A stretch of DNA of 64,000 nucleotides from Candidatus Latescibacterota bacterium (GTDB lineage: Bacteria; Latescibacterota; UBA2968; UBA8231). Of the stretch, positions 5,577 to 42,831 are shown one piece after another. The position numbers and the translations under genes were made by a program. Positions within the stretch are counted from its first letter, which is position 1; each line of letters begins with the position of its first letter. The notes under the pieces were generated by a model. It saw only the letters and a program-made list of their open reading frames with translations. It did not search any database and was not told the origin of the DNA. Location of the stretch: assembly GCA_965203175.1 (NCBI GenBank), contig OZ241867.1, positions 5,920,001 through 5,984,000 of the forward strand, given 5' to 3'.

Positions 5577-6530
5577 GTGGATTTCTGGCGTGAAGAAATC
5601 TTTGTCCATCGCTTCTCCACGGCTGACTTTCTCGCCGCCTGTCACCAAGCGTTCGAGCGGTATGGCGCGGGGGTCATCGACAATCCACCGCGCACCGAAT
5701 CCGTCCAAAAGCGCGGGTCACTCGACTACTTTCGCTTGGATATGCCCGCCGAATGGCCGGGGAAGTTTCGCGCGCGAAAGATCATCGAAGAATTTTCAGA
5801 CGTGGCGACCGGACGACTGGCCAAGCGGGAGGCGTATATCGCATTTGAAGATCTGCAACAGGGCCGATCGTATCGGCTAGAGGCCGGGCACATCACCGAC
5901 TGGCGCACCGGCGCGGCGGGCGCGCTGGGTCTCCAATATCTAGCGGGCGCGGCCATCGAGCGAGTCGCCATCTTGGGAACTGGCCGGATTGCGCGGACTT
6001 TGGCCCTATCCTGCGACGCGCTCTTTGATTTGGCGGAAATTGCCTGCACGAGTCGCCGGGAGGCAAACCGGGCTGCGTTTGCCAAAGCGGTCGAGCCGGA
6101 CCTGCATGCGAGCCTGCGGATAGCAACGTCGCTAGAGACCTGTATCGCCGGAGCCGACGCCGTGCTGACGGCAGTGCCAACGCCGCAGCCCATTTTGACC
6201 TCCGCGGCCCTAGCCGAGGTTCCCTACCTCGCGATCCTCGCCGGGGATAGTCGCACGCGCCAGCTCGCGCCGGAAGTCCTCTATGAGCGCACGGTAGTCG
6301 TCGATGTGCTCGCCCAAGCCCAGAAGTCCGGGGAGTTTCGCTTTGCCGCCGAGCAGGGCCAAGCCGAGCAGATCGCCTTGGCGCGCAATGCCGAGGGCAC
6401 AGTACTAGATATCGGCGACGCCGCCTGCGGCCGGCTTGGCGCAATCGCGCCGAGCGTGGTTTATCTGACGGGGATGGGGGCGCAGGACTTGTGCGCGGCG
6501 GCCATGGTGTACCACCGCCTACTCACTTGA
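5577..6530 (+). CDS. Ornithine cyclodeaminase/mu-crystallin family protein
   Basis: ITDWRTGAAG, ILGTGRIA and LTGMGAQD motifs. Confidence 0.8.
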   Translation: MDFWREEIFVHRFSTADFLAACHQAFERYGAGVIDNPPRTESVQKRGSLDYFRLDMPAEWPGKFRARKIIEEFSDVATGRLAKREAYIAFEDLQQGRSYRLEAGHITDWRTGAAGALGLQYLAGAAIERVAILGTGRIARTLALSCDALFDLAEIACTSRREANRAAFAKAVEPDLHASLRIATSLETCIAGADAVLTAVPTPQPILTSAALAEVPYLAILAGDSRTRQLAPEVLYERTVVVDVLAQAQKSGEFRFAAEQGQAEQIALARNAEGTVLDIGDAACGRLGAIAPSVVYLTGMGAQDLCAAAMVYHRLLT

Positions 6531-11441: not shown

Positions 11442-12292
11442 AGTCGTTGGCCTCGGCGTGCACGGCGTAGAATAGCAAAGAGTTGTTCGGCGATCTCGTC
11501 GTTGGCCGCCGCCAAAAAGTGCCCGAATTTGCGGCGCTGAGTATAAGTCGGTCGGCGGCGTTGTCCAATGTAGCAGCGCGCCCCGGCTTCTTCGGCAATC
11601 AGCGACGGCGGGCCCACGTCATAGACTTCGACTTGGCGCGTCAGGTACGCACACAGCGTGCCCTCGGCGATCTCTGTGAGGACCAATGCCGCCCCAATGG
11701 GACTTTCGCGCGGATTCAGCGCGGGGCGGACGAGGGCCTGATAGGGACGAGCCTTGGAAGAAATAAAGGCTTTATTCGTGCGCGGTTCGCCGGGTAGCTG
11801 CAAGCGACGCGGGCGACCATCGCCGACGCGCACAAAAGCACCCGCACCTTTAATGGCCGTAAAAATTTTGTCCTCTGAGGGCCGCGCGACAATCGCGGCC
11901 AGCATCTGGCCGTCGCAAGCCAAGCCGATGACAATGTGATAGGGAGCGTCGCCCCGCTTGAAGTGCAAGGTGCCGTCAATGGGATCGAGAATGACCGCAT
12001 AGGGCGAGGTGTTGCCGGCAAAGCGCTTTTTGAGCGGCGTGCGCTCTTCGGCGATGCAGCGCACAAACGGGAAGTGCTGGAGCACGGCTGCGAGGAGGAT
12101 ATCCTGCACGGCCGCGTCGAGGACCGTGAAGGCCGTGGAGGCGTCCTGCGCCTTGCTGCCGGTGAGGCTCTTGTCCGCAGCCTTGCCAATGTCGGCGACT
12201 TGGCCGTAGAAAATTAGCGAGGCGCGGGCGCACTGGCCGACGACCGGCAGCAGCGCGTCGATAAAGTCGTCGGGGTTGATGTTTTCGGCCAT
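11438..12292 (-). CDS. Inositol monophosphatase family protein
   Basis: AEE and ILDPIDGTLHF metal-binding motifs. Confidence 0.85.
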   Translation of the reverse strand: MAENINPDDFIDALLPVVGQCARASLIFYGQVADIGKAADKSLTGSKAQDASTAFTVLDAAVQDILLAAVLQHFPFVRCIAEERTPLKKRFAGNTSPYAVILDPIDGTLHFKRGDAPYHIVIGLACDGQMLAAIVARPSEDKIFTAIKGAGAFVRVGDGRPRRLQLPGEPRTNKAFISSKARPYQALVRPALNPRESPIGAALVLTEIAEGTLCAYLTRQVEVYDVGPPSLIAEEAGARCYIGQRRRPTYTQRRKFGHFLAAANDEIAEQLFAILRRARRGQRL

Positions 12293-29456: not shown

Positions 29457-30928
29457 AGGCAATTATGGTCATGTTCGACTCGCTCAACCGGCACATGTTG
29501 CCGCCCTACGGCTGCAATTGGACGCACGCGCCCAATTTCCAGCGGCTCGCCGAGCGGTCTCTTACCTTTGACACCAGCTACGTCTGCTCCATGCCGTGCA
29601 TGCCCGCCCGCCGCGATTTGCACACCGGGCGGCCCAATTTTCTCCACCGCTCTTGGGGGCCGCTGGAGCCGTTCGACGACTCCGTCCCTCGAATGCTGCG
29701 CGAGGCCGAGATCTCGTCGCACCTCATCAGCGACCACTACCATTACTGGGAGGCCGGCGGTGCTACCTACCACACCCAGTACAACACTTGGCAGTTCTTC
29801 CGCGGCCAAGAAGGCGATCCGTGGATCGGGCAGGTGGCCGACCCACCACCCGTAGAGGCGCACGCGAGCAATGCGGGCCGCAGCATGTGGCATCGACAAG
29901 ACCGCGTCAACCGGCAATACATGCGCCGCGAAGAAGACCAGCCCCAATCGCAGACCTTCACGTCCGGCGTCGAGTTCATCCGCCGCAACCACGCGCAAGA
30001 CAATTGGTTTTTGCAGATCGAGACCTTTGACCCGCACGAGCCATTTTTCACCCAACGCCAATACCAAGACCTCTACCCAGAGCTTTTTAAGAACCGCTCG
30101 TCTGTGCTGTTCGACTGGCCGACTTACGGTCCTGTAACCGAAGAACAGGCCCTCATCGATCAATGCCGGGGCCACTACGCATCGCTACTGAGCATGTGCG
30201 ACGCCCGCCTCGGCGACATCCTCGACGAGATGGACCGGCTCGAACTGTGGGACGACACCATGCTCATCGTGTGGACCGACCACGGCTTCCTGCTCAGCGA
30301 GCACGACCTGTGGGCCAAGATACAGATGCCTTGGTACCGCGAGCTGTCCAACACGCCGTTCTTCGTCTGGGATCCGCGCTGCGGCCACGCGGGCCAGCGG
30401 CGGCAGAGCTTGGTGCAACCGTCGATTGACTTGGGACCGACCTTGCTGGACCTCTTTGGGATGGAACCGACCCCGGACATGCTGGGCCAGAGCCTGCGCG
30501 AAGCCTGCGCGAGCGACTCTCCCGTGCGCGAGGCCGCGATTTTCGGCAACCACGGCGGGCAGGTGAATGTCACCGATGGCCGCTATGTGTACATGCGCGC
30601 GCCCACCCAGCCCGACAACCAGCCCCTGTACAACTACACGCTCATGCCCACGCACATGCGCGACCCCTTCTCAGTCGATGAATTCGCCAACGTGGAGCTA
30701 GCCGAACCGTTTGGTTTTAGCAAGGGCTGTCGGCTGCTGCGGACGCAAGGACACACGCGCAGCAAGCAGCACGAATACGGGACGCTACTCTTTGACCTAG
30801 AGCAAGACCCGCGCCAAGAGGCCCCGCTCGCCGACGCGGCACTGGAGCAGCGCATGCAGGAGCTGTTGCGCGCGCAGATGGAAGCGTGCGAAGCTCCGCC
30901 AGAGCAATACGAACGCTTGGGAATCTAA
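29453..30928 (+). CDS. Sulfatase
   Basis: CxPxR motif (CMPARR); FDPHEPF and TDHG motifs. Confidence 0.92.
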   Translation: MKAIMVMFDSLNRHMLPPYGCNWTHAPNFQRLAERSLTFDTSYVCSMPCMPARRDLHTGRPNFLHRSWGPLEPFDDSVPRMLREAEISSHLISDHYHYWEAGGATYHTQYNTWQFFRGQEGDPWIGQVADPPPVEAHASNAGRSMWHRQDRVNRQYMRREEDQPQSQTFTSGVEFIRRNHAQDNWFLQIETFDPHEPFFTQRQYQDLYPELFKNRSSVLFDWPTYGPVTEEQALIDQCRGHYASLLSMCDARLGDILDEMDRLELWDDTMLIVWTDHGFLLSEHDLWAKIQMPWYRELSNTPFFVWDPRCGHAGQRRQSLVQPSIDLGPTLLDLFGMEPTPDMLGQSLREACASDSPVREAAIFGNHGGQVNVTDGRYVYMRAPTQPDNQPLYNYTLMPTHMRDPFSVDEFANVELAEPFGFSKGCRLLRTQGHTRSKQHEYGTLLFDLEQDPRQEAPLADAALEQRMQELLRAQMEACEAPPEQYERLGI

Positions 30929-30942
30929 GACAGGAGAATTAC

Positions 30943-32841
30943 ATGCAGAGTCCGGCGCAAAAAGCCATCGTCATCGGCATGGACGGAGCCGCCATGGAAT
31001 TGGTGCAACACATGGTGGATCAAGGTCACATGCCCCACTTGGGTCAGCTCATGGCGCAGGGCGTCAAGCGGCCCATGATCGGCGTCTTCCCAACTCTGAC
31101 GCCACCCGGCTGGACGGCCACTTCGACCGGAGCTTGGGCGGGAACCCATCGAGTCATGGACTTCAATATCCGCAAGCTCGGCGGGCGTCTCGACGAGACG
31201 GTGTGGGGCATCAACACTGAGCTTTCGCAGGCCGAGTACTTGTGGAACACAGTCGAGCGGGCCGGCAAAAAGCCGATCTTGGTCAAGTGGGAGATGTCCT
31301 GGCCACCGACCGTGCAAACCGGCATCCAAGTCGAGGGCACTGGCCCGGGCGTGTCCAACGTGCATCAGATCACCGGCTACCACCTCTTTGTCGGCGGCGG
31401 CTGGACGCCCCGGCCGATCGGCGGTCCACGCGATCCCGAGACGTTGGACCCGAGCGCCTTGCAAAAGGTGCGCAACGTCGATCCGGTGGAGATTGTCCCA
31501 GCCGAGGGATGGCAAGATGCGCCCACATCTGCGCTGCCACCCAAAGAAGTGGAGCTAGTCATCGAGCCGCTCAAACGCGGGCGGGCGGATATGCACCCAG
31601 GCCAAGGGGGACCACCTAAGCATTTCTACGGCCTGATATACGCCTCGGCCGACAAGGGCTACGACCGGCTGCTCATTTGCCGCAGCCGCGATGCGGGTGA
31701 TCGGGTCGCCGAACTGGCGGTGGGCCAATGGACCGATTGGTGGAAGGACAGCTTTGAAATTGACGGCCAAGCGCTTGATGGCTATGTGCGCATGAAGCTC
31801 GTCAGCCTGAGCGCAGCAGGCGATGTGTTCGAGCTTTTTGTGCCGCAAGTCTGGCCGGCTACCGGGTACACACAGCCGGAAGAAGTGGCGCAGCAGATCG
31901 ACGAAAACGTCGGCAATTTCCTGCAGAATCCAGCACGCGACGCTTTGGGCGTAGTCGATGACGACACCTATTTCGAGCTGTTGGACTTTCACCACCAGCG
32001 GCTGGCCGAGGTGGCTGCTTACCTGACGGAGAGCAACGACTGGGACGTGCTGTTCATCGAAACCCACGCCTCGGATTACACCAGCCACTTCTTCCTCTCA
32101 CAAGCCGACGAATGCAGCGGGGCCGACGCGCACACGCTGGCGCGCTGCCAAGCGGGCGTGGCTCAAACCTATGCTTCCATCGACGGCATGATCGGCCGCG
32201 TCGTCGAGCTGGCCGATGACGACACCGTCGTCGCGGTCGTCGCCGACCACGGCGGCACCCCCAACCAACACCGGCCGGTCGATATCGCCGAGGTGTTGGA
32301 ACAGGCGGGCTTTTTGGTCTATGCAGACGCGGAGAAAAAGCAGATCGACTGGCAGCGGACGCGGGCGGCCAATGTGGGGCTGGTCCACATCTTCGTCAAT
32401 CTCAAGGGACGCGAGCCTACGGGGATCGTCGATCCCAGCGACTACGAGCAAACGCGGCTCGACCTCATCGAAGCCCTCCACGCCTATCGCCATCCGCAGA
32501 CCGGGCGCGGCCCCTTTGCCCTCGCACTGACGCGGGAAGACGCGGAAATGGTCAATCTGGCGGGCGAACTCGTCGGCGACGTGGTCTATGCGCTGCGGCC
32601 CGAATACGACGGAGCGCACGGCAAGCAGCTACCCTCAGCCACGCTCGGCATCGGCGGGCAGCACTGCACGTTCGTGCTGGCCGGGGCCGGCGTCAAGCAA
32701 GGGCTGGCACTCGAGCGACAGGTGCGGGCGGTAGATGTCGCGCCGACGCTGTGCTACTTACTCGGTATCCCCATGCCCGAGCAGGTGGAGGGCGGCGTGA
32801 TTTACGAGGCGCTTGAAGACGCGGACTGGCATCTGCGATGA
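30943..32841 (+). CDS. Alkaline phosphatase superfamily / type I phosphodiesterase
   Basis: IGMDG, PTLTPPGW, ADHG and DVAPT motifs; CAGGAG RBS. Confidence 0.82.
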   Translation: MQSPAQKAIVIGMDGAAMELVQHMVDQGHMPHLGQLMAQGVKRPMIGVFPTLTPPGWTATSTGAWAGTHRVMDFNIRKLGGRLDETVWGINTELSQAEYLWNTVERAGKKPILVKWEMSWPPTVQTGIQVEGTGPGVSNVHQITGYHLFVGGGWTPRPIGGPRDPETLDPSALQKVRNVDPVEIVPAEGWQDAPTSALPPKEVELVIEPLKRGRADMHPGQGGPPKHFYGLIYASADKGYDRLLICRSRDAGDRVAELAVGQWTDWWKDSFEIDGQALDGYVRMKLVSLSAAGDVFELFVPQVWPATGYTQPEEVAQQIDENVGNFLQNPARDALGVVDDDTYFELLDFHHQRLAEVAAYLTESNDWDVLFIETHASDYTSHFFLSQADECSGADAHTLARCQAGVAQTYASIDGMIGRVVELADDDTVVAVVADHGGTPNQHRPVDIAEVLEQAGFLVYADAEKKQIDWQRTRAANVGLVHIFVNLKGREPTGIVDPSDYEQTRLDLIEALHAYRHPQTGRGPFALALTREDAEMVNLAGELVGDVVYALRPEYDGAHGKQLPSATLGIGGQHCTFVLAGAGVKQGLALERQVRAVDVAPTLCYLLGIPMPEQVEGGVIYEALEDADWHLR

Positions 32842-33860
32842 AGGCAGCTTACTACTGCGGCGACCGCACGGTCGAAATCGGCGAGTGCCGGGTGCAATCC
32901 CCCAGCGCAGATCAGGTGCGAATCGAAGTAGCCTATTGCGGAGTGTGCGGCACGGACATCCACATTTACCTAGGCCATCAGGACCGCCGGATCGACATGC
33001 CCCAAGTCATAGGGCACGAGATGTCGGGACGGATCGCAGAAGTCGGAGCCGACGTCGAAGGCTGGGCCGTGGGCGATCCGGTCGTAGTGCGTCCCTTAGA
33101 GGCTTGCGGCGCGTGCGCGGCCTGCAACGCCGGCAATGGCCATATCTGCCAGAATCTAAACTTCATCGGCATCGACAGTCCGGGTGCCTTCCAGGGGTCG
33201 TGGACCGTGCCGACCCATACACTGCACCGCCTGCCGGACGACATGCCGATGACGCTAGGTGCTCTAGTCGAGCCGCTGGCGGTCGCCTGCCACGACGTGC
33301 GCTTGGGCGAGGTGGTACCGGGCGAGAAGGTAGTGGTGATCGGCGGCGGACCAATCGGTCTGCTCAATGCGCTGGTGGCGCGGCACGCGGGGGCCGAGGT
33401 GCGAGTGGCCGAGGTCAACGCCTTTCGGCTGCAGGCAGCGCACGCGCTGGGACTGGAAACCGTCCATCCGCTAGAGGAGGACTTGGTCACCTACGTCGAA
33501 ACCTGGACCGAGGGCGCGGGAGCCGACGCAGTCTTCGAGGTCTCCGGCTCGTCGGCCGGAGCCGAGGTGATGACTAAACTCGCCAAGGTCCGGGGGCGGA
33601 TCGTGGTGGTGGCCATTTTCGCTGACGCGCCCAAAGTCGATCTCTTTCAATTCTTCTGGCGCGAGTTAAAAATGTGCGGCGTGCGCGTGTACGAACCCGA
33701 AGACTACGACCGCGCCATTGAGCTAGCGGCTAGCGGCGCGCTGCCGCTCAACGAGCTGATTACCGAGCACCTTCCCTTAGACGCGCTACCCGACGCCTTT
33801 GCCCGGCTGACAGCGGGCACGGACGCGGTCAAAATTTTAATCGACACCCAAGGGGAATAA
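32838..33860 (+). CDS. Zinc-binding sugar-alcohol/sugar-acid dehydrogenase
   Basis: CGTD, GHE, CxxCxxC...C and GGGPIG motifs. Confidence 0.92.
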   Translation: MKAAYYCGDRTVEIGECRVQSPSADQVRIEVAYCGVCGTDIHIYLGHQDRRIDMPQVIGHEMSGRIAEVGADVEGWAVGDPVVVRPLEACGACAACNAGNGHICQNLNFIGIDSPGAFQGSWTVPTHTLHRLPDDMPMTLGALVEPLAVACHDVRLGEVVPGEKVVVIGGGPIGLLNALVARHAGAEVRVAEVNAFRLQAAHALGLETVHPLEEDLVTYVETWTEGAGADAVFEVSGSSAGAEVMTKLAKVRGRIVVVAIFADAPKVDLFQFFWRELKMCGVRVYEPEDYDRAIELAASGALPLNELITEHLPLDALPDAFARLTAGTDAVKILIDTQGE

Positions 33861-33866
33861 TATAGA

Positions 33867-34634
33867 ATGAGCATCTTGGACCTTTTTAAGCTCGACGGCC
33901 AAACGGCCTTGGTCACCGGGTGCCGCCGAGGCATCGGACGCGGGTTCGCGCAAGCATTGGCCGAGGCCGGAGCGGATATCGTCGGCGTCAGCGCTTCACT
34001 CGAAGCAGACTCCGAAGTCGGCCAAGACATTGCCGAGCGCGGCAAAAACTTCACAGGCTATGCCTGCGACTTCAGCGACCGAGAGGCAGTCCGCGCCTTC
34101 GTCGAGCAGGTCAACGCCGAAGTCGGCCCAATCGACATCCTCATCAACAACGCCGGTACGATTCGGCGCGCGCCGGCTGAGGAACACGGAGACGAAGACT
34201 GGGACCACGTCATCGAGGTCAACTTAAACGCGCAGTTCGTGCTGGCGCGAGAATTCGGCAAGCAGATGCTCTCCCGCGGCCGGGGCAAGATCGTCTTCAC
34301 CGCTTCAGTGCTGACCTTCCAAGGCGGCATCACAGTGCCGGGCTATGCCGCGGCTAAAGGCGGAATCGGACAGTTGACGATGGCGCTGGCCAATGAATGG
34401 GCCGGTCGCGGAGTCAACGTCAATGCCATCGCCCCCGGCTATATCGCCACCGATAACAATCAAGCCCTGCGCGACGACCCGGTGCGCAACGAGCAGCTAC
34501 TAGTGAGAATCCCAGCCGGCCGCTGGGGCACGCCGGACGACTTAAAAGGCGCGGTAGTGTGGCTGTCGTCGCGAGCAGCCGACTACGTGCACGGGTCCAT
34601 CGTAATCGTCGATGGAGGGTGGATGGGGCGTTGA
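33867..34634 (+). CDS. kduD: SDR oxidoreductase, 2-dehydro-3-deoxy-D-gluconate 5-dehydrogenase-like
   Basis: TGxxxGIG, NNAG, FQGGITVPGYAAAK, ANEWA and RIPAGRWG motifs. Confidence 0.85.
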   Translation: MSILDLFKLDGQTALVTGCRRGIGRGFAQALAEAGADIVGVSASLEADSEVGQDIAERGKNFTGYACDFSDREAVRAFVEQVNAEVGPIDILINNAGTIRRAPAEEHGDEDWDHVIEVNLNAQFVLAREFGKQMLSRGRGKIVFTASVLTFQGGITVPGYAAAKGGIGQLTMALANEWAGRGVNVNAIAPGYIATDNNQALRDDPVRNEQLLVRIPAGRWGTPDDLKGAVVWLSSRAADYVHGSIVIVDGGWMGR

Positions 34635-35256
34635 TGACGGAAGAGTGCGCGCCTGCTAGCATTCTGGGGCAAGACGCTGCGTAGTTCTGACAATTCCTCG
34701 GGAACTGTATTCAATGATACCGAAGGGCAACGTAGCTATAAGCCTGTCTTACATCATTTAATGGATGTCGCTGCTGTCGCCCTGAGATGGCAGCAATTGA
34801 ATCCTGCCCGTCTTGAGCGCGAGGTCGCTTTGCTGAAAGCGAGTCCAGAGTGCTTATCCAAGATCACTTCTTTTCTGGCTGGCATACACGACCTTGGCAA
34901 AATTTCACGCGGCTTTCAGGCGAAGGTACCCGAATTGTGGCCAGAGCAGATCCCTAGCCCGAAGAGAGCAATCGCCGACCGTGGTCATTGGCGCAACACG
35001 GCTATCCTTCTCAGAGCCGAGCCAATCGCCCAAGAGTTCGCCAGCTTATTCCCTAGCATCCCTTATGATATAGCACCGATCATTGCTGCCATTGCGGGGC
35101 ACCATGGACGACCACCCGAGGGACAGGATGAAGTAAACGCCGATCCAGGCAAAGCTCGACGCGACCAGCAGCTTCGTGAAGAATGCGTGGACGCGGCTCA
35201 TACTGCCTTTTGTATTCTCCAAAACCTGATAGAGCCTCTGCCGTTATTGTCGCTCG
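34634..35256 (+). pseudogene. cas3: Truncated cas3 (HD nuclease domain only), type I-E
   Basis: FWGKT...HHLMDVAAVA, GIHDLGKISRGFQ and AIAGHHG motifs. The ATG at 34634 is out of frame with the body, and the ORF is cut at CRISPR repeat 1. Confidence 0.88.
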
Positions 35257-35347
35257 ATGTTCCCCGCAGGCGCGGGGATGAACCGTGGACCGTTTTCTTT
35301 TTCTCCCGACCGAAGACAATGTTCCCCGCAGGCGCGGGGATGAACCG

Positions 35348-35533
35348 CTACCTGGTGCAGCCGTCGCTGCACTAGTTGAGGCCCTAGATGTAGCGATAGA
35401 CGAACTTTTTGGTCAATGGCCAGGACACCCAGCCGATGTTCCGAAAGGCAAAGTCCAAAGCGCGTTGCTTAGCCTGTATGGCGTGGCTGGCGAAGCGTGT
35501 GACGACTGCGCCCGCTGGAATGCACGCCAATAA
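35348..35533 (+). pseudogene. 3' end of an unknown gene, cut at repeat 2
   Basis: Open frame (LPGAAVAALVEALD...ARQ*) begins exactly after the repeat with no start codon of its own. Confidence 0.45.
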
Positions 35534-35607
35534 AGGCGAACCCGCAGGCGGTGGCCTGTGGCCGGTCAATGGGCCGCCGCCGGAGACTTTATGAAAAGGA
35601 AGGAGGA

Positions 35608-36300
35608 ATGATGGACTATCATATAGAAGTCAAGAGAGCAGGGGGAAGGTCTCGCCACTTTCGTGGCTGCATCCCCAATGAAGACTGGTCTCGATTATTA
35701 GAATTCAGAGACGAAGTCCGCCGCATGACATCTCATTTTGTGAGATGCGGTATTACAAACCTGAACATTAGCACTACTCTCTCTTGGGATCAGGATGGGC
35801 TTAGATTCTCATCTAAAACTGATCTCAATGATGGACACATGAACATTATTCTCCATAGTATCAGACCTTTCCATCTTAAAAAGGAGCCTTTTTACTTTTG
35901 TAAAATGCTAAAAATTCTCAATCGCCATATAAATGGAAACCCTATTAACATGCTTTTTCGTAAAGCGAAAGACGATTTTCTTGGAAGAAATTTTCAAAGC
36001 CAAGTTTCTATTTCTTCCATTTTGGGTGCCGATCCGGGGCAGCATCACACTATTAACAGCGAGGATACGCTAAATCTATGGCTTAATGCGTATGAATACC
36101 ACAGAGACGAAAAGAAGAAGTTGCTTCTCGATGATATTTTGTCTAGTATTCCTAGGGGGTTTGGGGTCTCTGTATTTAAGTCTATGATGATAGACAAAAT
36201 AAGAGCCATCATATGGCTTAGTGATTTTATTTCCGCTATAGAAGAGTCGCCAACTGGAAGACGCTCGGCAAACGTTAAAAAGGAGGTGCTTGATGAGTGA
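35608..36300 (+). CDS. Hypothetical protein, possibly HEPN-like; AT-rich
   Basis: AGGAGG RBS; 230 aa helical protein with IRPF.L.KEP.YF and WLNAYEYHRD motifs. Confidence 0.7.
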   Translation: MMDYHIEVKRAGGRSRHFRGCIPNEDWSRLLEFRDEVRRMTSHFVRCGITNLNISTTLSWDQDGLRFSSKTDLNDGHMNIILHSIRPFHLKKEPFYFCKMLKILNRHINGNPINMLFRKAKDDFLGRNFQSQVSISSILGADPGQHHTINSEDTLNLWLNAYEYHRDEKKKLLLDDILSSIPRGFGVSVFKSMMIDKIRAIIWLSDFISAIEESPTGRRSANVKKEVLDE

Positions 36301-36919
36301 GAGTATCGAACATGTCCAAAAGCTGAGAAAGTTGAAGATGGCTTTCTTTGATTTGGAAGAGGCGTGGAATTATACTGAAATTCTGTTGAAAGGAAGATAC
36401 CATGAGGCCGACCCTTTTTCTTGGCATCCTAGAGGTAGGCCGCCAGAGGATCATCATATGAGAGAGGCATTAGTGACTGCCTTGGTTATCTCTCTATCTC
36501 GTGCCCAAAAATACTGTGAGGAGTGCCTTGAAACCCAAGAGGAAAAAGATTTTGCTAGAATGGTTAAATTCTTTAGAGATAAATACTTTGCTCATTCTGA
36601 CATTCTCCCTTATGGACCGAGTTTTATTCGTCCTGCTTGGGACGAGGGGCACACAAGACAGGCTCGGAGCCTAATAGAGAAAACCTTTAGACATTTGAAG
36701 AATAGCAATGATATAGCCAGAACCCGTATCACCCCTGAGATGACAAACGTCACTGAGTACCGTGTCGAAAATATCACATTCGACGAAATGTTCAAGCGAC
36801 TCAACGAGCTAGGCCAAGAAGGGTGGGAACTTTGGGAGCCTTTTGGCGAGAGGAAGAGGATACTAGATGAAGTGAAAAGAGAGTGGTTTTATAGAGTAGG
36901 TTTCAAGCGGATGCGCTGA
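36293..36919 (+). CDS. Putative HEPN-domain protein fused to a DUF4177-like C-terminal module
   Basis: AGGAGG RBS; ALVTALVISLSR and RDKYFAHSD (Rx5H) motifs; C-terminal EYRVE...LNELGQEGWEL. Confidence 0.65.
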   Translation: MSESIEHVQKLRKLKMAFFDLEEAWNYTEILLKGRYHEADPFSWHPRGRPPEDHHMREALVTALVISLSRAQKYCEECLETQEEKDFARMVKFFRDKYFAHSDILPYGPSFIRPAWDEGHTRQARSLIEKTFRHLKNSNDIARTRITPEMTNVTEYRVENITFDEMFKRLNELGQEGWELWEPFGERKRILDEVKREWFYRVGFKRMR

Positions 36920-36946
36920 AAAAGATCCTCATATCCCAGAAAAGAG

Positions 36947-37364
36947 ATGCCAACGACCAACCTTAATTTCTCCCCCGGCACCGTCTTCCACATGGACAAC
37001 TTGGAAGCACTGAGGGGCATGAACAGCAACACCGTCGACCTGATCGCCACCGATCCGCCGTTCAACACGGGCCGCAACAGGGAGGGCAAAGGCGGCCAGT
37101 ACCCGGACAGTGGCGTTGGGGCGACAATGTCCACTACGAGTGGATGGACCAGATACGCGACGACAACGAGCCGTTAGTTGAAGTGATTGAGTCGGCGATG
37201 CATGCGCACAGCTTCAACCTCGGCGCGTTCTTGTGCTTCATGGGCGTCCGGATGCTGGAGATGAAGCGGGTGCTCAAGGAGACGGGGAGCATTTACCTGC
37301 ACTGCGATCCCACGGCGAGCCACTACCTCAAGGCGAGCATGGACGCCGTGTTTGGTGGTGCCGA
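36947..37364 (+). pseudogene. N6/N4 DNA methyltransferase N-terminal fragment, frameshifted (~37108) and truncated at repeat 3
   Basis: DNLEALR...VDLIATDPPFN in one frame, continuing as RVLKETGSIYLHCDPTASHYLK..MDAVFG in another. Confidence 0.85.
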
Positions 37365-37620
37365 ATGTTCCCCGCAGGCGCGGGGATGAACCGTGGATTC
37401 GGCCAGACAAGCGGTTGGCGATCTAATGTTCCCCTCACACACGGGGATGGACTGTTGGTTGCATGACGACAATGACGACTTATGCCATATTCTCCACACG
37501 CGCGTGCTTAGGTGCGAAAACGGAGAAGATTCTGAGCGGCAACGGTAGCAATACCTTGCTGCTGAGCTACCTACATTCTAAACTCTAAAGCGACCCATGC
37601 GTTGATTAAGGAGTCCAAGA

Positions 37621-37917
37621 GTGAGCTTACAGAACGTTCCAGACAGCATTAAGCGCGATGTGGCCCGCGGAGTGGCGATCCTCAAAGAGGCAGGCTGTCA
37701 GCAGGTGTACGTGTTCGGCTCCGTAGCAGAGGGGCGCGTACGGCCCGGCTCAGATATTGACTTTGCCGTCCGCGGCTGTCCGGCGAAACTGTTCTTCAAA
37801 TTGCAGGGAAGACTGCTCATAGAATTGCGTCGCTCCGCGGATCTGATCGACTTAGATGCAGACCCAGATTTAACGGCCTTTCTCGAACGCGAAGCGGGCA
37901 TGATCCATGTTGGATGA
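37621..37917 (+). CDS. Minimal nucleotidyltransferase antitoxin (MntA-like)
   Basis: VYVFGS.A.G.....SDIDFAV motif, 98 aa. Confidence 0.88.
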   Translation: MSLQNVPDSIKRDVARGVAILKEAGCQQVYVFGSVAEGRVRPGSDIDFAVRGCPAKLFFKLQGRLLIELRRSADLIDLDADPDLTAFLEREAGMIHVG

Positions 37918-38410
37918 TCGTGCTCAGGCCCACATTGAGCGAGAATTGCAGCAGATCGAGAGCCTTTTTCTAGAATATCGCACACTGCTATCTGAGACTA
38001 GTATCAATGAACCCAATCTCGTTGAATTAACTGCATTAGCGGGCGTTCTCCATTCGTTCTATAACGGTGTGGAAAACGTATTCCAGACTATTGCTAAGCG
38101 AGTGGATGAGCAGATGCCAACTGGATCGAACTGGCATTGGGAGCTTCTCCACTTGATGGCTCGCAAGACGGACAACAGGCATCCTGTCGTCTCTCCAGAA
38201 ACAATAGATCGCCTTGAGCCGTACCTTGGATTTCGCCACTTCGTACGACACGCTTATTCCTTTCGGCTGAATTGGACGAAAATGGAGGATCTTGTGCTTG
38301 AGCTAGGCGAGGTCTGGTCAACATTTCGACAAGACATCAGAATATGGCTGGACTCAAAGCCAGAAGGATCTGTTGATCCCGATTCAAGCTCGCCAACGCA
38401 AAAAGAGTAA
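37907..38410 (+). CDS. HEPN RNase toxin (HepT-like), MNT-HEPN TA pair
   Basis: LHSFYNGVEN, WHWELL and FRHFVRHAY motifs; overlaps the MNT gene. Confidence 0.85.
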   Translation: MLDDRAQAHIERELQQIESLFLEYRTLLSETSINEPNLVELTALAGVLHSFYNGVENVFQTIAKRVDEQMPTGSNWHWELLHLMARKTDNRHPVVSPETIDRLEPYLGFRHFVRHAYSFRLNWTKMEDLVLELGEVWSTFRQDIRIWLDSKPEGSVDPDSSSPTQKE

Positions 38411-38504
38411 GGTTGCTTGACAAAATCGTTTTAGGATTTCCATTGAAAGCCAAATCAGTCCCTTCCCAACCCAATCACAACGCACTTTCCCGCGAGGAGA
38501 CCCC

Positions 38505-39500
38505 ATGATCCGCATGGCGCAATACGGCACCAAGCACGGTCACGCCGCTGGCAAACTCAAGGCAATGCTCGACAACCCCGAGGTCGAAGTCGTCGGCCTA
38601 TACGAACCCGACGCCGAATGCCGCCAACAAGTTGCAGACGACGAACTCTATCGACAGGTCCGCTTCTTGGACAGCGAAGAAGAGCTGCTCGGTGACAGCT
38701 CCATCGTCGCCGTCGCCTCCGAGGGCCGCAACGACGAGAGCTTGGACCAGACCGAGCGCATCGTCCAAGCCGGCAAGCACGTGTGGTACGACAAGCCAGC
38801 CGGAGACGATTGGGCGCAGTGGCAGCGGGTCGTAGCAGAGGCGCGGGCCGCCGACCTGCAAGTGCAAATGGGCTTTATGCTGCGCTACCATCCCGGCTTC
38901 AACCAGATCGCAGAGTGGGCGCGGTCGGGGTTTTTGGGCAATGTCTATTCAGTGCGCGCCCACATGTCCACCAACATCACCGAGACCGGGCGAGAAGTAA
39001 TCGCCGCCGGACACCATGGCGGCATCTTCTACGATCTAGCCGGGCACATGCTCGATCAAGTGGTGTGGATTCTGGGGCGGCCGGAGAAAGTGACGACCTT
39101 TCTGCGCAACGACACCGGCGTCGTGCCCGCGTTTCAGGACAACACGCTCGGCGTTTTTGAGTACGAGCGGGCCATGGCTTGGGTCGATATTGCGGCGATG
39201 GAGCCACAGCCGATGGCGCGGCGCTTTGAGGTCTATGGCGATCGCGGCAGCGCGATTCTGCTAGAGCCTTTTGAGCCGGGCCAGACCATCCGGCTCTGCC
39301 TGACCGAAGCAGCCGACGGCTATGCACAGGGCGAGCAGATGGTACCTTTCGAAGGAATTTCGCGGCAGGGACTTTACGAACTCGAATTGGCGTCCCTTGT
39401 ACGGGTTCTCAAAGGCGAACACGGCCCAGACCGCTCACTCGACCACGAACTCCTCGTGCAAGAGACCTTGCTGCGCGGGACCGGGCTTATTGCGGCTTGA
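38505..39500 (+). CDS. Gfo/Idh/MocA oxidoreductase
   Basis: GKHVWYDKP, RYHP and GGIFYDLAGHMLD motifs. Confidence 0.88.
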   Translation: MIRMAQYGTKHGHAAGKLKAMLDNPEVEVVGLYEPDAECRQQVADDELYRQVRFLDSEEELLGDSSIVAVASEGRNDESLDQTERIVQAGKHVWYDKPAGDDWAQWQRVVAEARAADLQVQMGFMLRYHPGFNQIAEWARSGFLGNVYSVRAHMSTNITETGREVIAAGHHGGIFYDLAGHMLDQVVWILGRPEKVTTFLRNDTGVVPAFQDNTLGVFEYERAMAWVDIAAMEPQPMARRFEVYGDRGSAILLEPFEPGQTIRLCLTEAADGYAQGEQMVPFEGISRQGLYELELASLVRVLKGEHGPDRSLDHELLVQETLLRGTGLIAA

Positions 39501-40482
39501 GCCATGCCTCGGCAATCACGCGCTTGATCGGTGGGATCGCTAGCTGGAAGTTGCGACCAACCGGGCGCGGATGCGGAAACCACTTCCACAGTAATGCACC
39601 AACCACGCGCGGCTCAGCGGCGATGGCGTCAAGCGCGACGCGCATGCAGGCCACTTGCACGGGGAGCGCGTCCTCGCCATCCACCGGGTACGCCCACGGC
39701 GCGAGCGGCGCTTGGTGCGACTGGTTGTAGCCCAGCTCAGTGAAGAGGATGTTGCGGTTGTGTAGCTCGCCAAAGGCCCGCAGTTCCCCCATGCGCTCTG
39801 CCCAGCCAGCGCGGATATCCTCCTCGTCGTAATCGGGATCCTCAGTGAGGGGGAAATAAGCCTGAATGCCGATGACATCGAGAGCATCCCAGAAAGGCAC
39901 TTGGCGGTAGTCAGTCCAATTGGCCGCATAGGTCAGGGGCGCATCAGTGCGCTGGCGCACCTCGGCAATGAGTGCGCGCCATTCCTCCTCAAAAGTCAGC
40001 ATGCGGTCGAGTTCGGTGCCGACGACGAAACCATCGGCCTCCCGGCAGACGGTGGCCAACAGCGCGATCCACTCCCGATAGTCCCGCCAGAACCGCTGCC
40101 AATCCTCGGCTTGGGCAAAGGTAATTTCGCCCCGCCAAGCAAAGGGCGAGCGCCAATAGGCGATATGGGGCTTGATGTAGATGCGCAATCCCAAGCGGTG
40201 GGCCTCGCGGATGGGACGCACGATATGGGCCGGCGGGTCGTCTGGATCAATGTCCGACCACCGGAGCGTACCGTCGGCACGGATGCTAGCGTAGGGGTGG
40301 ATCGCCACCCAGTTGGCACCGACAGCGCGAATGTCCTCTAGGGTCGGCACAATGGCGTCAGTGCCCCAGTCGCGGCCAATGCCGTGCGTGGAGATCGTGA
40401 TGCCGCGGACCTCCGTATCGTCGGCCACAGTCAATCCGGCGAGAGCGAGAGCGAGAACGAGGGCGTTGATAGCATGGGACAT
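39487..40482 (-). CDS. Secreted GH113-like TIM-barrel glycoside hydrolase
   Basis: Signal peptide; KPHI, WRGEI, GTEL, LTYAANW, FWDALDVIGIQAYFPL and FTELGY motifs. Confidence 0.78.
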   Translation of the reverse strand: MSHAINALVLALALAGLTVADDTEVRGITISTHGIGRDWGTDAIVPTLEDIRAVGANWVAIHPYASIRADGTLRWSDIDPDDPPAHIVRPIREAHRLGLRIYIKPHIAYWRSPFAWRGEITFAQAEDWQRFWRDYREWIALLATVCREADGFVVGTELDRMLTFEEEWRALIAEVRQRTDAPLTYAANWTDYRQVPFWDALDVIGIQAYFPLTEDPDYDEEDIRAGWAERMGELRAFGELHNRNILFTELGYNQSHQAPLAPWAYPVDGEDALPVQVACMRVALDAIAAEPRVVGALLWKWFPHPRPVGRNFQLAIPPIKRVIAEAWLKPQ

Positions 40483-40531
40483 ATTAGGCTAAATATACGG
40501 AACCACGCCTAGATAGGATGGAGACCAAACC

Positions 40532-41917
40532 ATGCGTCCGAACATTCTCTGGATCTGCACCGACCAGCAGCGCTACGATACGATTGGCGCGCTAGGCAAC
40601 GAGCACATCCGCACGCCGAACATCGACCGCCTAATCGGCGAGGGCACCGCGTTTACCCACGCCTTCTGCCAAAGCCCGATTTGCACCCCCAGCCGCGCCA
40701 GCTTCCTCACCGGCATGTATCCGAGCAGCGTCCACGGCTGCACCAATGGCAATGCCTACTGGGCGAGCGCGGCCCCCCTAGTCACCAAGCAGCTAGCCGA
40801 CGCCGCTTCCTACGACTGCGGACTCGCCGGCAAGCTGCACCTAGCCGGTGCCCACGGCCGGATCGAGCCGCGCGGCGACGACGGCTATCGCGTCTTCCAC
40901 TGGAGCCACGACTCGCGCGACCAGTGGCCCGAAGGCCACGCGTACGCCGATTGGGTCCGCACCCAAGGCCGCACCTTAGCCGAGCTGCGCGAGGATCCAG
41001 CCCAGATGCCACCCGCGCTGCACCAGACCACTTGGTGCGCGGACAAGGCCATTGAGTTCATGCGCGAGGAGCGCACCACGCCTTGGCTGATGAGCGTCAA
41101 CATGTTCGACCCGCACGCGCCCTTCGACCCGCCACAAGCGTACTTGGATCGCTACGATCCAGCGGCCCTACCCGATCCGCTGTGGAGCGAAAATGACCCC
41201 CAGGCCCATGCGCAACTCGGTCCGGTGGACGGAGCCGCGTCCATTAGCTTAGACCAAGCCAAGGAAGTCATGGCGGCGTATTACGCCATGATCGAATTGA
41301 TCGACGACAATGTGGGACGCATGATCCAGGCCCTAGAAGAAAGCGGCCAGCGCGAGAATACCCTAGTGATTTTCACGTCGGATCACGGCGAACTGTTGGG
41401 CGATCACCAACTCGTGGGCAAGGGGTGCCGATTTTACGAGTGCTTGGTGCGAGTGCCATTGATCTGCTCCTGGCCGGGACGCGTACAGGAGGGGCGCGTC
41501 TGCGATGCGCTGGTCGAACTAATGGACATTGCCCCAACCTTGCTAGAACTAGCCGAAGTCCCCGCGCCCGAAAGAATGCAAGGGCGCTCGCTGTGGCCCC
41601 TGCTAACCGGCCAAACCCAGACGCACCGCGCCTACGTCCGCAGCGAGTACTACCGCGCCCTAAACCCAGACGTACCAGGCCGGGAGCATCTCCAAGGCAC
41701 CTACGGCACGATGATCCGCGACCAGCGCTACAAACTGGTCTGCTACCACAACCGCGACCAAGGCGAACTATTTGACTTGCAGGAAGATCCAGGCGAGTTC
41801 GACAACCGCTGGGACGACCCAGCCTACGCAGAGGTGCGCTTCGCGCTGCTGAAACAGAATTTCGACGCGCTGGCCCAAGCCGTGGATATTGGCCCCGTGC
41901 AGGTTACGCAGTTTTAG
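40532..41917 (+). CDS. Sulfatase (choline-sulfatase-like)
   Basis: TDQQR, CTPSRAS, GKLH, DPHAPF and SDHG motifs. Confidence 0.93.
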   Translation: MRPNILWICTDQQRYDTIGALGNEHIRTPNIDRLIGEGTAFTHAFCQSPICTPSRASFLTGMYPSSVHGCTNGNAYWASAAPLVTKQLADAASYDCGLAGKLHLAGAHGRIEPRGDDGYRVFHWSHDSRDQWPEGHAYADWVRTQGRTLAELREDPAQMPPALHQTTWCADKAIEFMREERTTPWLMSVNMFDPHAPFDPPQAYLDRYDPAALPDPLWSENDPQAHAQLGPVDGAASISLDQAKEVMAAYYAMIELIDDNVGRMIQALEESGQRENTLVIFTSDHGELLGDHQLVGKGCRFYECLVRVPLICSWPGRVQEGRVCDALVELMDIAPTLLELAEVPAPERMQGRSLWPLLTGQTQTHRAYVRSEYYRALNPDVPGREHLQGTYGTMIRDQRYKLVCYHNRDQGELFDLQEDPGEFDNRWDDPAYAEVRFALLKQNFDALAQAVDIGPVQVTQF

Positions 41918-41928
41918 CGGAGTGCACA

Positions 41929-42831
41929 GTGGCAGTTGCCGACCAGAAAAGGGCTTATCTCTGCGGGTTGGCCGCAGTGCTGCTGTGGTCAACCGTGGCG
42001 TCGGCCTTCAAAATCACCCTTCGCCATATGGACTACGCCGAGTTGCTATTCTGGGCTAGTTGCGCTTCGACAGGAGCGCTCGGGGTGTTAGTCGTCGCGC
42101 AGGGAAAAATAGGTCAGGTACTCAGAAGCCAGCCGACTGACTACGCCCGCTCGCTGGCGCTGGGAGCGTTAAATCCCCTACTCTACTATCTAATCCTCTT
42201 CAAAGCCTACCAACTGCTACCCGCCCAAGAGGCGCAGGCACTCAATTATACTTGGGCGCTCACCCTGACTTGGCTCTCCATTCCACTCTTGGGACAGCGA
42301 ATCGGCCGGAGCGATCTGGCCGCGGGCTTGATCTGTTACGCAGGCGTGCTAGTCATCTCCACGCGCGGCGAAATCTGGACCTTGCGCTTTTCCGATCCAC
42401 TCGGGGTGACCTTGGCGCTGGGCAGCACAGTGATATGGGCCTTCTATTGGATCTACAACACCCGCGACAAGCGCGACCCCGTGGTGCGGCTCTTCCTCAA
42501 TTTCGCTTTGTCACTGCCGCTGACACTCGGCTGTGTCCTGCTGATGGGACAGTGGCGGGCACCTGCTTGGCCGGGTTTGTTGGGGGCGGCTTACATCGGC
42601 CTCTTCGAGATGGGAATCACGTATGTTCTGTGGCAGTGGGCGCTGCGCTATGCAGAAAACACCTCCAGGGTCGGCAATCTAATCTTCATTTCCCCGTTCT
42701 GCTCCCTAGTACTGATTCACTTCGTGCTGGGAGAGGCAATTCGCTGGGCGACCCTAGCGGGCCTCGTGCTCATCGTCGCCGGCTTGCTCTACCAGCAAAG
42801 GGGGGCAAGGGCTCACTCCACCAGCCCGTAG
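41929..42831 (+). CDS. DMT/EamA transporter
   Basis: About ten TM helices; WSTVASAFK and AQEAQALNYTW motifs. Confidence 0.88.
   Translation: MAVADQKRAYLCGLAAVLLWSTVASAFKITLRHMDYAELLFWASCASTGALGVLVVAQGKIGQVLRSQPTDYARSLALGALNPLLYYLILFKAYQLLPAQEAQALNYTWALTLTWLSIPLLGQRIGRSDLAAGLICYAGVLVISTRGEIWTLRFSDPLGVTLALGSTVIWAFYWIYNTRDKRDPVVRLFLNFALSLPLTLGCVLLMGQWRAPAWPGLLGAAYIGLFEMGITYVLWQWALRYAENTSRVGNLIFISPFCSLVLIHFVLGEAIRWATLAGLVLIVAGLLYQQRGARAHSTSP

Follow-up and report, generated by a model that had tools for sequence, protein, structure and literature searches.

The window analysed here is a stretch of 64,000 nucleotides, C1:5920001-5984000 of the source genome (G000, a single contig of 6.58 Mb). It carries an orphan remnant, what is left of the end of a decayed type I-E CRISPR-cas locus, in which a 5' fragment of cas3 is fused to a first repeat (R1) and is followed by a spacer (S1), a second repeat (R2), an insert of 2017 nt, a third repeat (R3), a further spacer (S3) and a degenerate fourth repeat (R4). 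The stretch or part of it is contained in 20 sequencing runs from 11 studies, and four of these runs (X1-X4, three studies) were compared with it by way of their Logan contigs; the runs with a small share are sponge or marine metagenomes and were not used for habitat. The features, in order along the window, are as follows.

34641..35256, + strand: 5' fragment of cas3 (HD domain), a pseudogene ending at the first base of R1 (Pfam Cas3_HD, E=1.6e-20; TIGR01596)
35257..35285, + strand: R1, a perfect 29-nt type I-E repeat, from the sequence
35286..35318, + strand: S1, a 33-nt spacer, changed or different in related strains (runs X3 and X4)
35319..35347, + strand: R2, a perfect repeat and the left border of the insert, from the sequence
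35348..37364, + strand: foreign insert of 2017 nt, exactly between R2 and R3, recognised by GC, gene content and distribution
35348..35379, + strand: first 32 nt of the insert, a candidate former spacer by position alone
35348..35533, + strand: 3' end of an uncharacterised gene, 61 codons plus stop, cut by R2, with the frame open from 35348
35611..36300, + strand: orfA, intact, 229 aa, with its own Shine-Dalgarno sequence, function unassigned
36293..36919, + strand: orfB, intact, 208 aa, with a Shine-Dalgarno sequence, function unassigned
36947..37364, + strand: truncated N6/N4 DNA methyltransferase gene (5' part), frameshifted by 1 nt near 37108 and cut by R3 (weak matches to Pfam N6_N4_Mtase and NF008572)
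37330..37332, + strand: AAG in the place of a PAM, encoding the Lys of a conserved HY(L/V)K motif
37333..37364, + strand: 32 nt of methyltransferase coding sequence abutting R3, a candidate former spacer
37365..37393, + strand: R3, a perfect repeat and the right border of the insert, from the sequence
37394..37425, + strand: S3, the ancestral terminal spacer, 32 nt, identical in the sister species G006 and G022
37426..37454, + strand: R4, the degenerate terminal repeat, with a conserved trailer after it, from comparison with sister arrays

The type I-E repeat consensus is ATGTTCCCCGCAGGCGCGGGGATGAACCG, a 29-nt sequence that is partly palindromic and ends in CCG; the unit was set at 29 nt because all four copies begin with AT. 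Its 27-nt core occurs three times in the window (0 expected) and nowhere else in the 6.58-Mb genome. Allowing up to 3 mismatches, the repeat was found in 11 of the 41 genomes searched, the source genome counted, and the 8 carriers among 24 other genomes of the same genus have arrays of 10 to 224 units; the sister arrays with 22-224 units have a period of 61 nt. On the left, window positions 30000-35257 align at 88-93% with the sister genomes G014, G009 and G022, with the alignment reaching inside cas3; on the right, G006 contributes its distal array end and downstream genes, which match 37365-37959 and 38485-42000 at 92-94%. The latter segment also matches G012 and G022 at 92%, and G022 additionally covers 37363-37714 at 91.5%. 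S3 is letter-identical to the terminal spacer of G006 and G022, where the same degenerate last repeat follows. From this match and the syntenic flanks we conclude that the + strand is crRNA-sense, that the leader once lay at the left, and that R3-S3-R4 is the ancestral end of the array; with the trailer behind it, this end places the insert within a once-longer array. In X3, X4 and a minor strain of X1, the same additional repeat-spacer unit with a 32-nt spacer lies between R3 and S3 (in X3 on the same contig as the insert end); the source genome has therefore lost it. Directly downstream of the array trailer, at 37621-38410, lies a toxin-antitoxin pair of MntA-like nucleotidyltransferase and HepT-like type, of which the MntA part is conserved in sister genomes and the HepT part is unaligned in G006 and G022.

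At the other end of the remnant, the cas3 fragment is 64-85% identical to the full-length cas3 of five sister loci over all of its 205 residues, and DNA alignment with cas3 of G014, G022 and G009 carries the homology to 35256, one base (A) being common to cas3 and R1 so that the joint is ambiguous by 1 nt. Cas1 (PF01867) was not found in the source genome, the control search being positive in 7 of 14 named control genomes, and tblastn of 16 ORFs from the cas region of G014 returned the cas3 fragment as the sole match, with no other cas gene found in the 6.58-Mb genome. In G014, about 9 kb of ORFs, matched to an I-E cas operon by their sizes and not one by one, separate cas3 from the array. This comparison indicates that a deletion took the leader and most of the array together with everything in the cas operon beyond the cas3 fragment. 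The right end of the deletion coincides exactly with the 5' border of a repeat, which a random end would be expected to do about 1 time in 61. The triplet before the last 32 nt of cas3 is AAA in the source genome and GAA in the X4 strain, not AAG, and exact-border joints can therefore arise at this locus without a canonical PAM. The cas3-R1 joint and the right end of the insert share the same geometry, with native DNA running up to a repeat border. The position of the deletion end suggests that a self-spacer may have recombined with cas3, and we surmise that a cas3-derived spacer with a non-consensus PAM could in this way explain the joint and the loss of the cas genes; the three tolerated self-spacers of sister genomes, described below, likewise have a non-consensus PAM. 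Loss of cas genes has been described in lineages with self-targeting spacers, by the accounts given in PMC6990116 and in Vercoe 2013 (PMC3630108), and self-protospacers are reported to be enriched around the CRISPR arrays of Pyrococcus furiosus in the part of PMC5737086 that treats them. As in the former cases, the cas operon here was deleted beside an array and sister genomes carry self-derived spacers; unlike in those cases, one end of the deletion falls exactly at a repeat border.

Degenerate repeats, alone or few in number, were also seen inside the cas operons of sister genomes (L106 at about 5756-5783; L108 on the reverse strand at about 11460-11600; L109, L111, L175 and L174). They lie just after cas3 in G004 and G009 and about 2.8 kb upstream of the leader in G012, G022 and G006, and in G012 and G022 they are accompanied by an identical 32-nt 'spacer'. 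Such repeats resemble the repeat-like regulatory mini-arrays described in a preprint (bioRxiv 10.1101/2023.03.03.530964), as far as that description extends.

The insert is foreign to its surroundings. Its GC falls to 0.37-0.46 in the middle compared with about 0.6 in the flanks, and its matches among 41 relatives are confined to the methyltransferase part and one 33-nt match in G039. The methyltransferase family is frequent on viral contigs, 130 of 131 candidate IMG/VR stretches having been confirmed, with best segments of 41-77% identity and none of the 130 close. The reading of this part as a frameshifted, truncated gene also draws on alignments with a paralogous remnant and with the homolog in G019. 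In the methyltransferase frame the last 32 nt of the insert read ASMDAVFGGA, as against GIMDAVFGAR in the 76%-identical G019 homolog, and since that homolog continues as a normal methyltransferase, the gene in the insert has been cut at the repeat border (within about 6 nt). Both ends of the insert truncate genes and both do so exactly at repeat borders; for natural ends of a whole element, a position inside genes would be unexpected. Degraded relatives of the methyltransferase with 79-85% DNA identity occur at G000:C1:2271995-2272239, G011:C1:6081220-6081525, G022:C1:5888267-5888451 and G003:C29:7160-7342. The one in the source genome has in-frame stops, and those of G000 and G011 stop at the same point (window 37259). 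Remnants in the source genome and three sister genomes imply that elements with this gene visited the genus repeatedly.

Between the two truncated genes lie orfA and orfB, neither of which gave a Pfam, PADLOC or usable PHROG match. Distant relatives of orfA (24-40% identity) were found in 47 metagenome loci and on one viral contig (30%), and the family has an invariant WLNAYEYH motif. Some of these relatives adjoin type IIG restriction-modification genes, a PD-(D/E)XK nuclease with a UvrD helicase, or an integrase (L122, L127, L128, L134, L154 and L141), and in one setting hsdM and hsdS of a type I system flank the relative; from such neighbourhoods, orfA may be a defence-island gene. The structure model of orfA is confident (pLDDT 89.6), and no Foldseek match to it was found in PDB or BFVD at E<=0.001. 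A fold sought with VIA-wide gave generic helical matches (best Z 6.3, rmsd 3.8, 117 aligned), and chains of the HEPN type reached Z 5.4-5.5 in the same search; neither led to an assignment. As for orfB, it is missing from 166 of the 168 genomes of the phylum; 23 different orfB sequences at >=90% identity were found, with contigs of 7.26 Mb (the longest), 853 kb and 834 kb among their carriers, and a 52% homolog lies on a 5.98-Mb contig. Variants from many contigs share 96-99% identity outside a single hypervariable spot in the region of residues 105-109, with the forms PYGPSF, PYELGF, PYGLSF, PYGLDF, PYGLRF, PYGPRF and PYGPDGPGF, and some lack 3 residues near the N-terminus. Such variation suggests that orfB is under diversifying selection.

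The first-pass annotation had drawn attention to the right end of the insert, and on re-examination of the sequence the geometry is exactly as claimed: between AAG at 37330-37332 and the perfect R3 at 37365-37393 there are exactly 32 nt (37333-37364, GCGAGCATGGACGCCGTGTTTGGTGGTGCCGA). Among 637 spacers from eight array loci in six sister genomes, 628 are 32 nt long, the others being 31 nt (4), 33 nt (4) and 35 nt (1). The earlier estimate that a given trimer would stand at this distance by chance about 1 time in 64 agrees with the AAG frequencies we counted, namely 6 positions of the 418-nt methyltransferase part (1.4%), 51 of 2015 in the insert (2.5%) and 1.5% genome-wide. A cut in the gene that coincides exactly with a repeat border adds a second coincidence, of about 1 in 61; this cut and the AAG geometry alike were spotted after the fact.

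The sister arrays bear on whether AAG may be the PAM of this system. The last repeat base before the spacer is G in 619 of the 637 units, A in 9, T in 5 and C in 4. When whole arrays were compared with 31 genus genomes, three spacers, two in G009 and one in G004, matched their carrier's own chromosome at genus-conserved genes (G009:C1:2567632-2567666, G009:C1:1186373-1186406 and G004:C1:351756-351793; L164-L166). All three follow a non-G repeat, and in each the base before the protospacer (C, T, A) equals the odd last base of the repeat. The rule that the last PAM base becomes the last base of the repeat, assumed in the first-pass annotation, thus holds in this genus for 3 of 3 self-targeting spacers, and Swarts 2012 (PMC3338789) describes the same fate of the -1 PAM base in the type I-E system of E. 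coli. The triplets upstream of the self-protospacers are CCC, TCT and CAA, none being AAG. With 18 of 637 spacers being non-G, a draw of three non-G self-targets at random would have p about 2e-5; this bias argues that G at -1 matters for interference, for which it appears to be needed, and the three self-spacers look like tolerated ones of apparently intact sister systems. A protospacer of a G-type spacer was not found in the source genome, the fetched loci, the genus genomes or cultured phages, so that the assignment of AAG at -3/-2 stays putative. In these searches the 637 sister spacers gave one 29-nt match in the source genome, which is a conserved chromosomal self-target and not a PAM source, and nothing usable for the PAM in the 90-odd fetched loci; whole arrays of G022, G009 and G004 against the 31 genus genomes gave array-to-array matches and the three self-targets only, and two arrays compared with cultured phages gave no match.

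Two mechanisms had been proposed in the first-pass annotation for this end, recombination between a spacer and its protospacer, or integration by Cas1-Cas2 of a fragment whose PAM end was never trimmed. The former fits best, and we give about even credence to the reading that a mobile element recombined through one of its protospacers with the former spacer derived from it, a second spacer probably having done the same at the left end. By this account, the longer ancestral array would have held a 32-nt spacer from the methyltransferase gene of a mobile element, with AAG before the protospacer, and a second spacer would probably have come from the same strand of the element about 2 kb upstream. 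Homologous recombination of the spacers with their protospacers, in a double crossover or in two steps (the element integrating first and a deletion following), would then have swapped the array segment between the two spacers for the element's own DNA. The outcome would be a repeat, 2017 nt of foreign DNA cutting a gene at each end, and another repeat, with the native PAM kept upstream of the right 32 nt. We infer that the terminal 32-mers were once spacers and that the joints were made by recombination, not by Cas1-Cas2, as recombination best accommodates several features: 1) borders that are exact on both sides; 2) a PAM that was kept; 3) native coding sequence that runs up to the repeat; 4) truncated genes at both ends; 5) a position within an old array; and 6) a process without need for Cas proteins. 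Against it stand the coincidence of 1.4-2.5% that AAG alone represents, this triplet being also a conserved Lys codon, and the exact cas3-R1 border without AAG. Two crossovers on 32-nt homologies are rare events, and the negative searches for a donor and for the 32 nt as an ordinary spacer, given below, also count against this reading, the latter weakly.

Untrimmed integration would have joined the PAM-distal 3' end, 32-33 nt from AAG, to the repeat border, with the PAM side left untrimmed and the 2 kb joined at the other border with duplication of the repeat. The first integration step does produce a joint between the 3' end of a spacer and the 5' start of a repeat, the distance from the PAM agrees with the ruler, and identical repeats flank the insert, but all consensus repeats of the genus are identical as well. 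We nevertheless consider this mechanism very unlikely: the insert has 2017 nt whereas all 637 sister spacers have 31-35 nt, the cas3 fragment is the sole remainder found of the cas genes, cas1 included, and the insert is far less diverged than the cas3-R1 fusion that removed cas1-cas2, a fusion that the X4 strain shares; the insert thus appears younger than the fusion. A 2017-nt prespacer is without precedent to our knowledge, and no report of kilobase integration by Cas1-Cas2 was found in the open-access literature. An oversized spacer of 382 nt in G009 (L107, 7475-7856), the third-last unit of an active-looking array, holds an upstream region and the 5' portion of a tandem-repeat gene rich in Lys and Ala, with AAG, 31 nt and a repeat at its end. 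As a possible second case of the process that formed the insert it was too weak and was set aside, with AAG making up 4.7% of the Lys-rich segment and no donor in the genus.

Whether the junctions exist as assembled, a point that the first-pass annotation had left to be checked against reads, was decided by the run contigs, which bridge the right junction in several runs with 0 differences in X1 and X2. In X1, the likely source, one 2038-nt contig spans 35333-37370 with 0 differences; in X2, from the same study, contigs cover 35320-35791 and 36231-37391, again with 0 differences. In X3, from a second study, one contig covers 35257-37066 with 29 differences and 16 gap letters, and another runs from 37134 to 37393 and then continues with 32 letters, another repeat, S3 and the trailer at about 90% identity. 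In X4, from a third study, a contig over 34900-35337 contains the cas3-R1 fusion with 5 gaps and 27 differences, of which at least 12 fall in 357 nt of cas3. A chimeric join of array and foreign reads, for which one might argue that repeats break short-read assemblies, has practically negligible probability: X1 has a contig across both borders, X3 has one contig for each border, X2 adds the right border and X4 the left, and these runs come from three studies.

The same contigs revealed a marked difference in divergence between the insert and its flanks. In X4 the insert has 5 differences and a 9-nt deletion over 35319-36367, 0 differences over 36429-36870 and 0 over 36952-37251, a segment that spans the frameshift, whereas the trailer has 16 differences in 171 nt and the S1 region is heavily changed, the latter fitting with survival of different repeat-spacer units in each lineage. 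Overall, the insert has 5 differences in 1782 nt vs. at least 28 in 528 nt of flank in X4 (Fisher p=5e-14), and when pseudogene is compared with pseudogene, the methyltransferase has 0 in 300 vs. at least 12 in 357 for cas3 (p=7e-4). Across strains the insert is 99.5-100% identical where the flanks differ by 3-10%, with the step at R2 and R3; as these are metagenome contigs, flank and insert are linked here by similar depth (6.1 vs. 6.6) and the absence of alternative contigs only. Since the insert is less diverged than the flanks while the X4 strain shares the cas3-R1 fusion, the insert probably arrived, provided that this link holds, after the lineages had split and after the shared cas deletion, and with arrival after the loss of cas, only Cas-independent recombination is left. 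The low divergence of the insert suggests that it either came late or was exchanged laterally as a cassette flanked by repeats. It was either captured once and then spread, or homogenised later; the 1-nt methyltransferase frameshift common to the strains argues for one capture with subsequent spread and not for repeated capture.

This pattern also bears on a serious rival, namely that the 2-kb segment came by another route and that AAG stands 32 nt from R3 by chance, which we regard as possible, if doubtful. The route could be repeat-mediated recombination with a mobile element, or with the array of another strain, that already held repeat-flanked DNA, or it could be illegitimate joining at the palindromic repeats. 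A near-identical insert within diverged flanks, with the step at R2 and R3, is what would be expected of exchange through repeats; AAG has a frequency of 1.4-2.5%, the cas3-R1 joint is an exact repeat-border junction without AAG, and recombination of virus-borne solitary repeats with host arrays has been proposed, according to a review (PMC8616872). However, exchange through repeats accounts for the spread of the insert and not for its origin, nor for two truncated genes that abut complete repeats; a cut at the border (about 1 in 61) and a correctly spaced AAG (about 1 in 50) would seldom coincide by chance, and a repeat-bearing element was not found.

The recombination of spacers with protospacers would have started from ordinary spacers and a donor element, and traces of both were sought. 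No joint of R2 to 37333 or of 35379 to R3 was present among the joints listed for the four runs, whose contigs drop rare variants, and the right 32 nt had no match as an ordinary spacer among the 637 sister spacers or among those listed joints, lineage-specific spacers often being unique. Many other methyltransferase contigs in the runs share the block up to AAG and then diverge, with loose ends at 37332 in 15, 14, 23 and 11 contigs of X1-X4, respectively. A donor with the protospacer or protospacers and the intervening DNA was not found among phages, plasmids, IMG/VR, genome and metagenome contigs or 168 genomes of the phylum. Specifically, blastn of the insert against INPHARED matched only three Streptomyces phages over 65 nt of the methyltransferase, and a search against plasmids gave no match; orfB and the left gene fragment had no relatives in IMG/VR and no match in the genome contig collection, and the left gene fragment had none among 5.8 billion proteins. 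None of the 47 metagenome loci with orfA relatives (24-40%) had relatives of orfB, of the methyltransferase or of the left fragment nearby, and pattern scans of IMG/VR, one for a degenerate form of the right 32-mer and one for the left 32-mer as it stands, found no match.

Spacer-protospacer recombination between bacteria and their phage targets has been reported (Varble 2019, as cited in the review PMC8616872). In the staphylococci described there, as here, the spacer served as a short patch of homology, phage DNA was joined at the spacer, and the upstream sequence including the PAM was kept. The present locus differs from the staphylococcal case in being a fixed chromosomal fossil within a type I-E remnant, in which an internal 2-kb fragment is bounded on both sides, and in having probably been formed without Cas proteins. 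The staphylococcal finding was reportedly a laboratory observation, tied to transduction of the CRISPR locus. The prophage phiAP1.1 of Streptococcus pyogenes, as its preprint presents it (bioRxiv 10.1101/2020.10.09.333658), also places foreign DNA between two repeats of an array, there by an integrase acting at an attachment site inside the repeat, with the whole prophage inserted; in contrast, the insert described here has no integrase, its genes are cut at both ends, and its joint lies at a spacer-repeat border with PAM geometry. Compared with E. coli type I-E adaptation, with its AAG PAM and 32-33-nt spacers (in the account of Swarts 2012, PMC3338789), the locus shares a similar 29-nt repeat ending in CCG, 32-nt spacers and the -1 base in the repeat, but differs in a 'spacer' of 2017 nt, a fully kept PAM and the absence of adaptation genes. 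No natural genomic case described as a PAM and one spacer length of native DNA beside a repeat was found in the open-access literature.

If the terminal 32-mers were indeed spacers, the locus would be a natural, fixed example of CRISPR spacers, otherwise seen as defence memory, bringing in foreign genes by serving as anchors of homology. An array without cas genes would moreover be shown to be capable of staying genetically active, having gained a 2-kb cassette that is near-identical across strains in several studies. The signature, a PAM and one spacer length of native DNA beside a repeat, is searchable in any array with an oversized 'spacer'. We postulate further, as a rather unlikely extension, that orphan arrays are platforms for the capture and exchange of genes, in which old spacers import fragments of the elements they once targeted and identical repeats pass the cassette between diverged strains; likewise, the cas operon may have been lost through such recombination at a spacer derived from the genome's own cas3. 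In the present case the cassette carries two intact genes, one with a hypervariable loop (orfB) and one of a family found beside restriction-modification genes (orfA).
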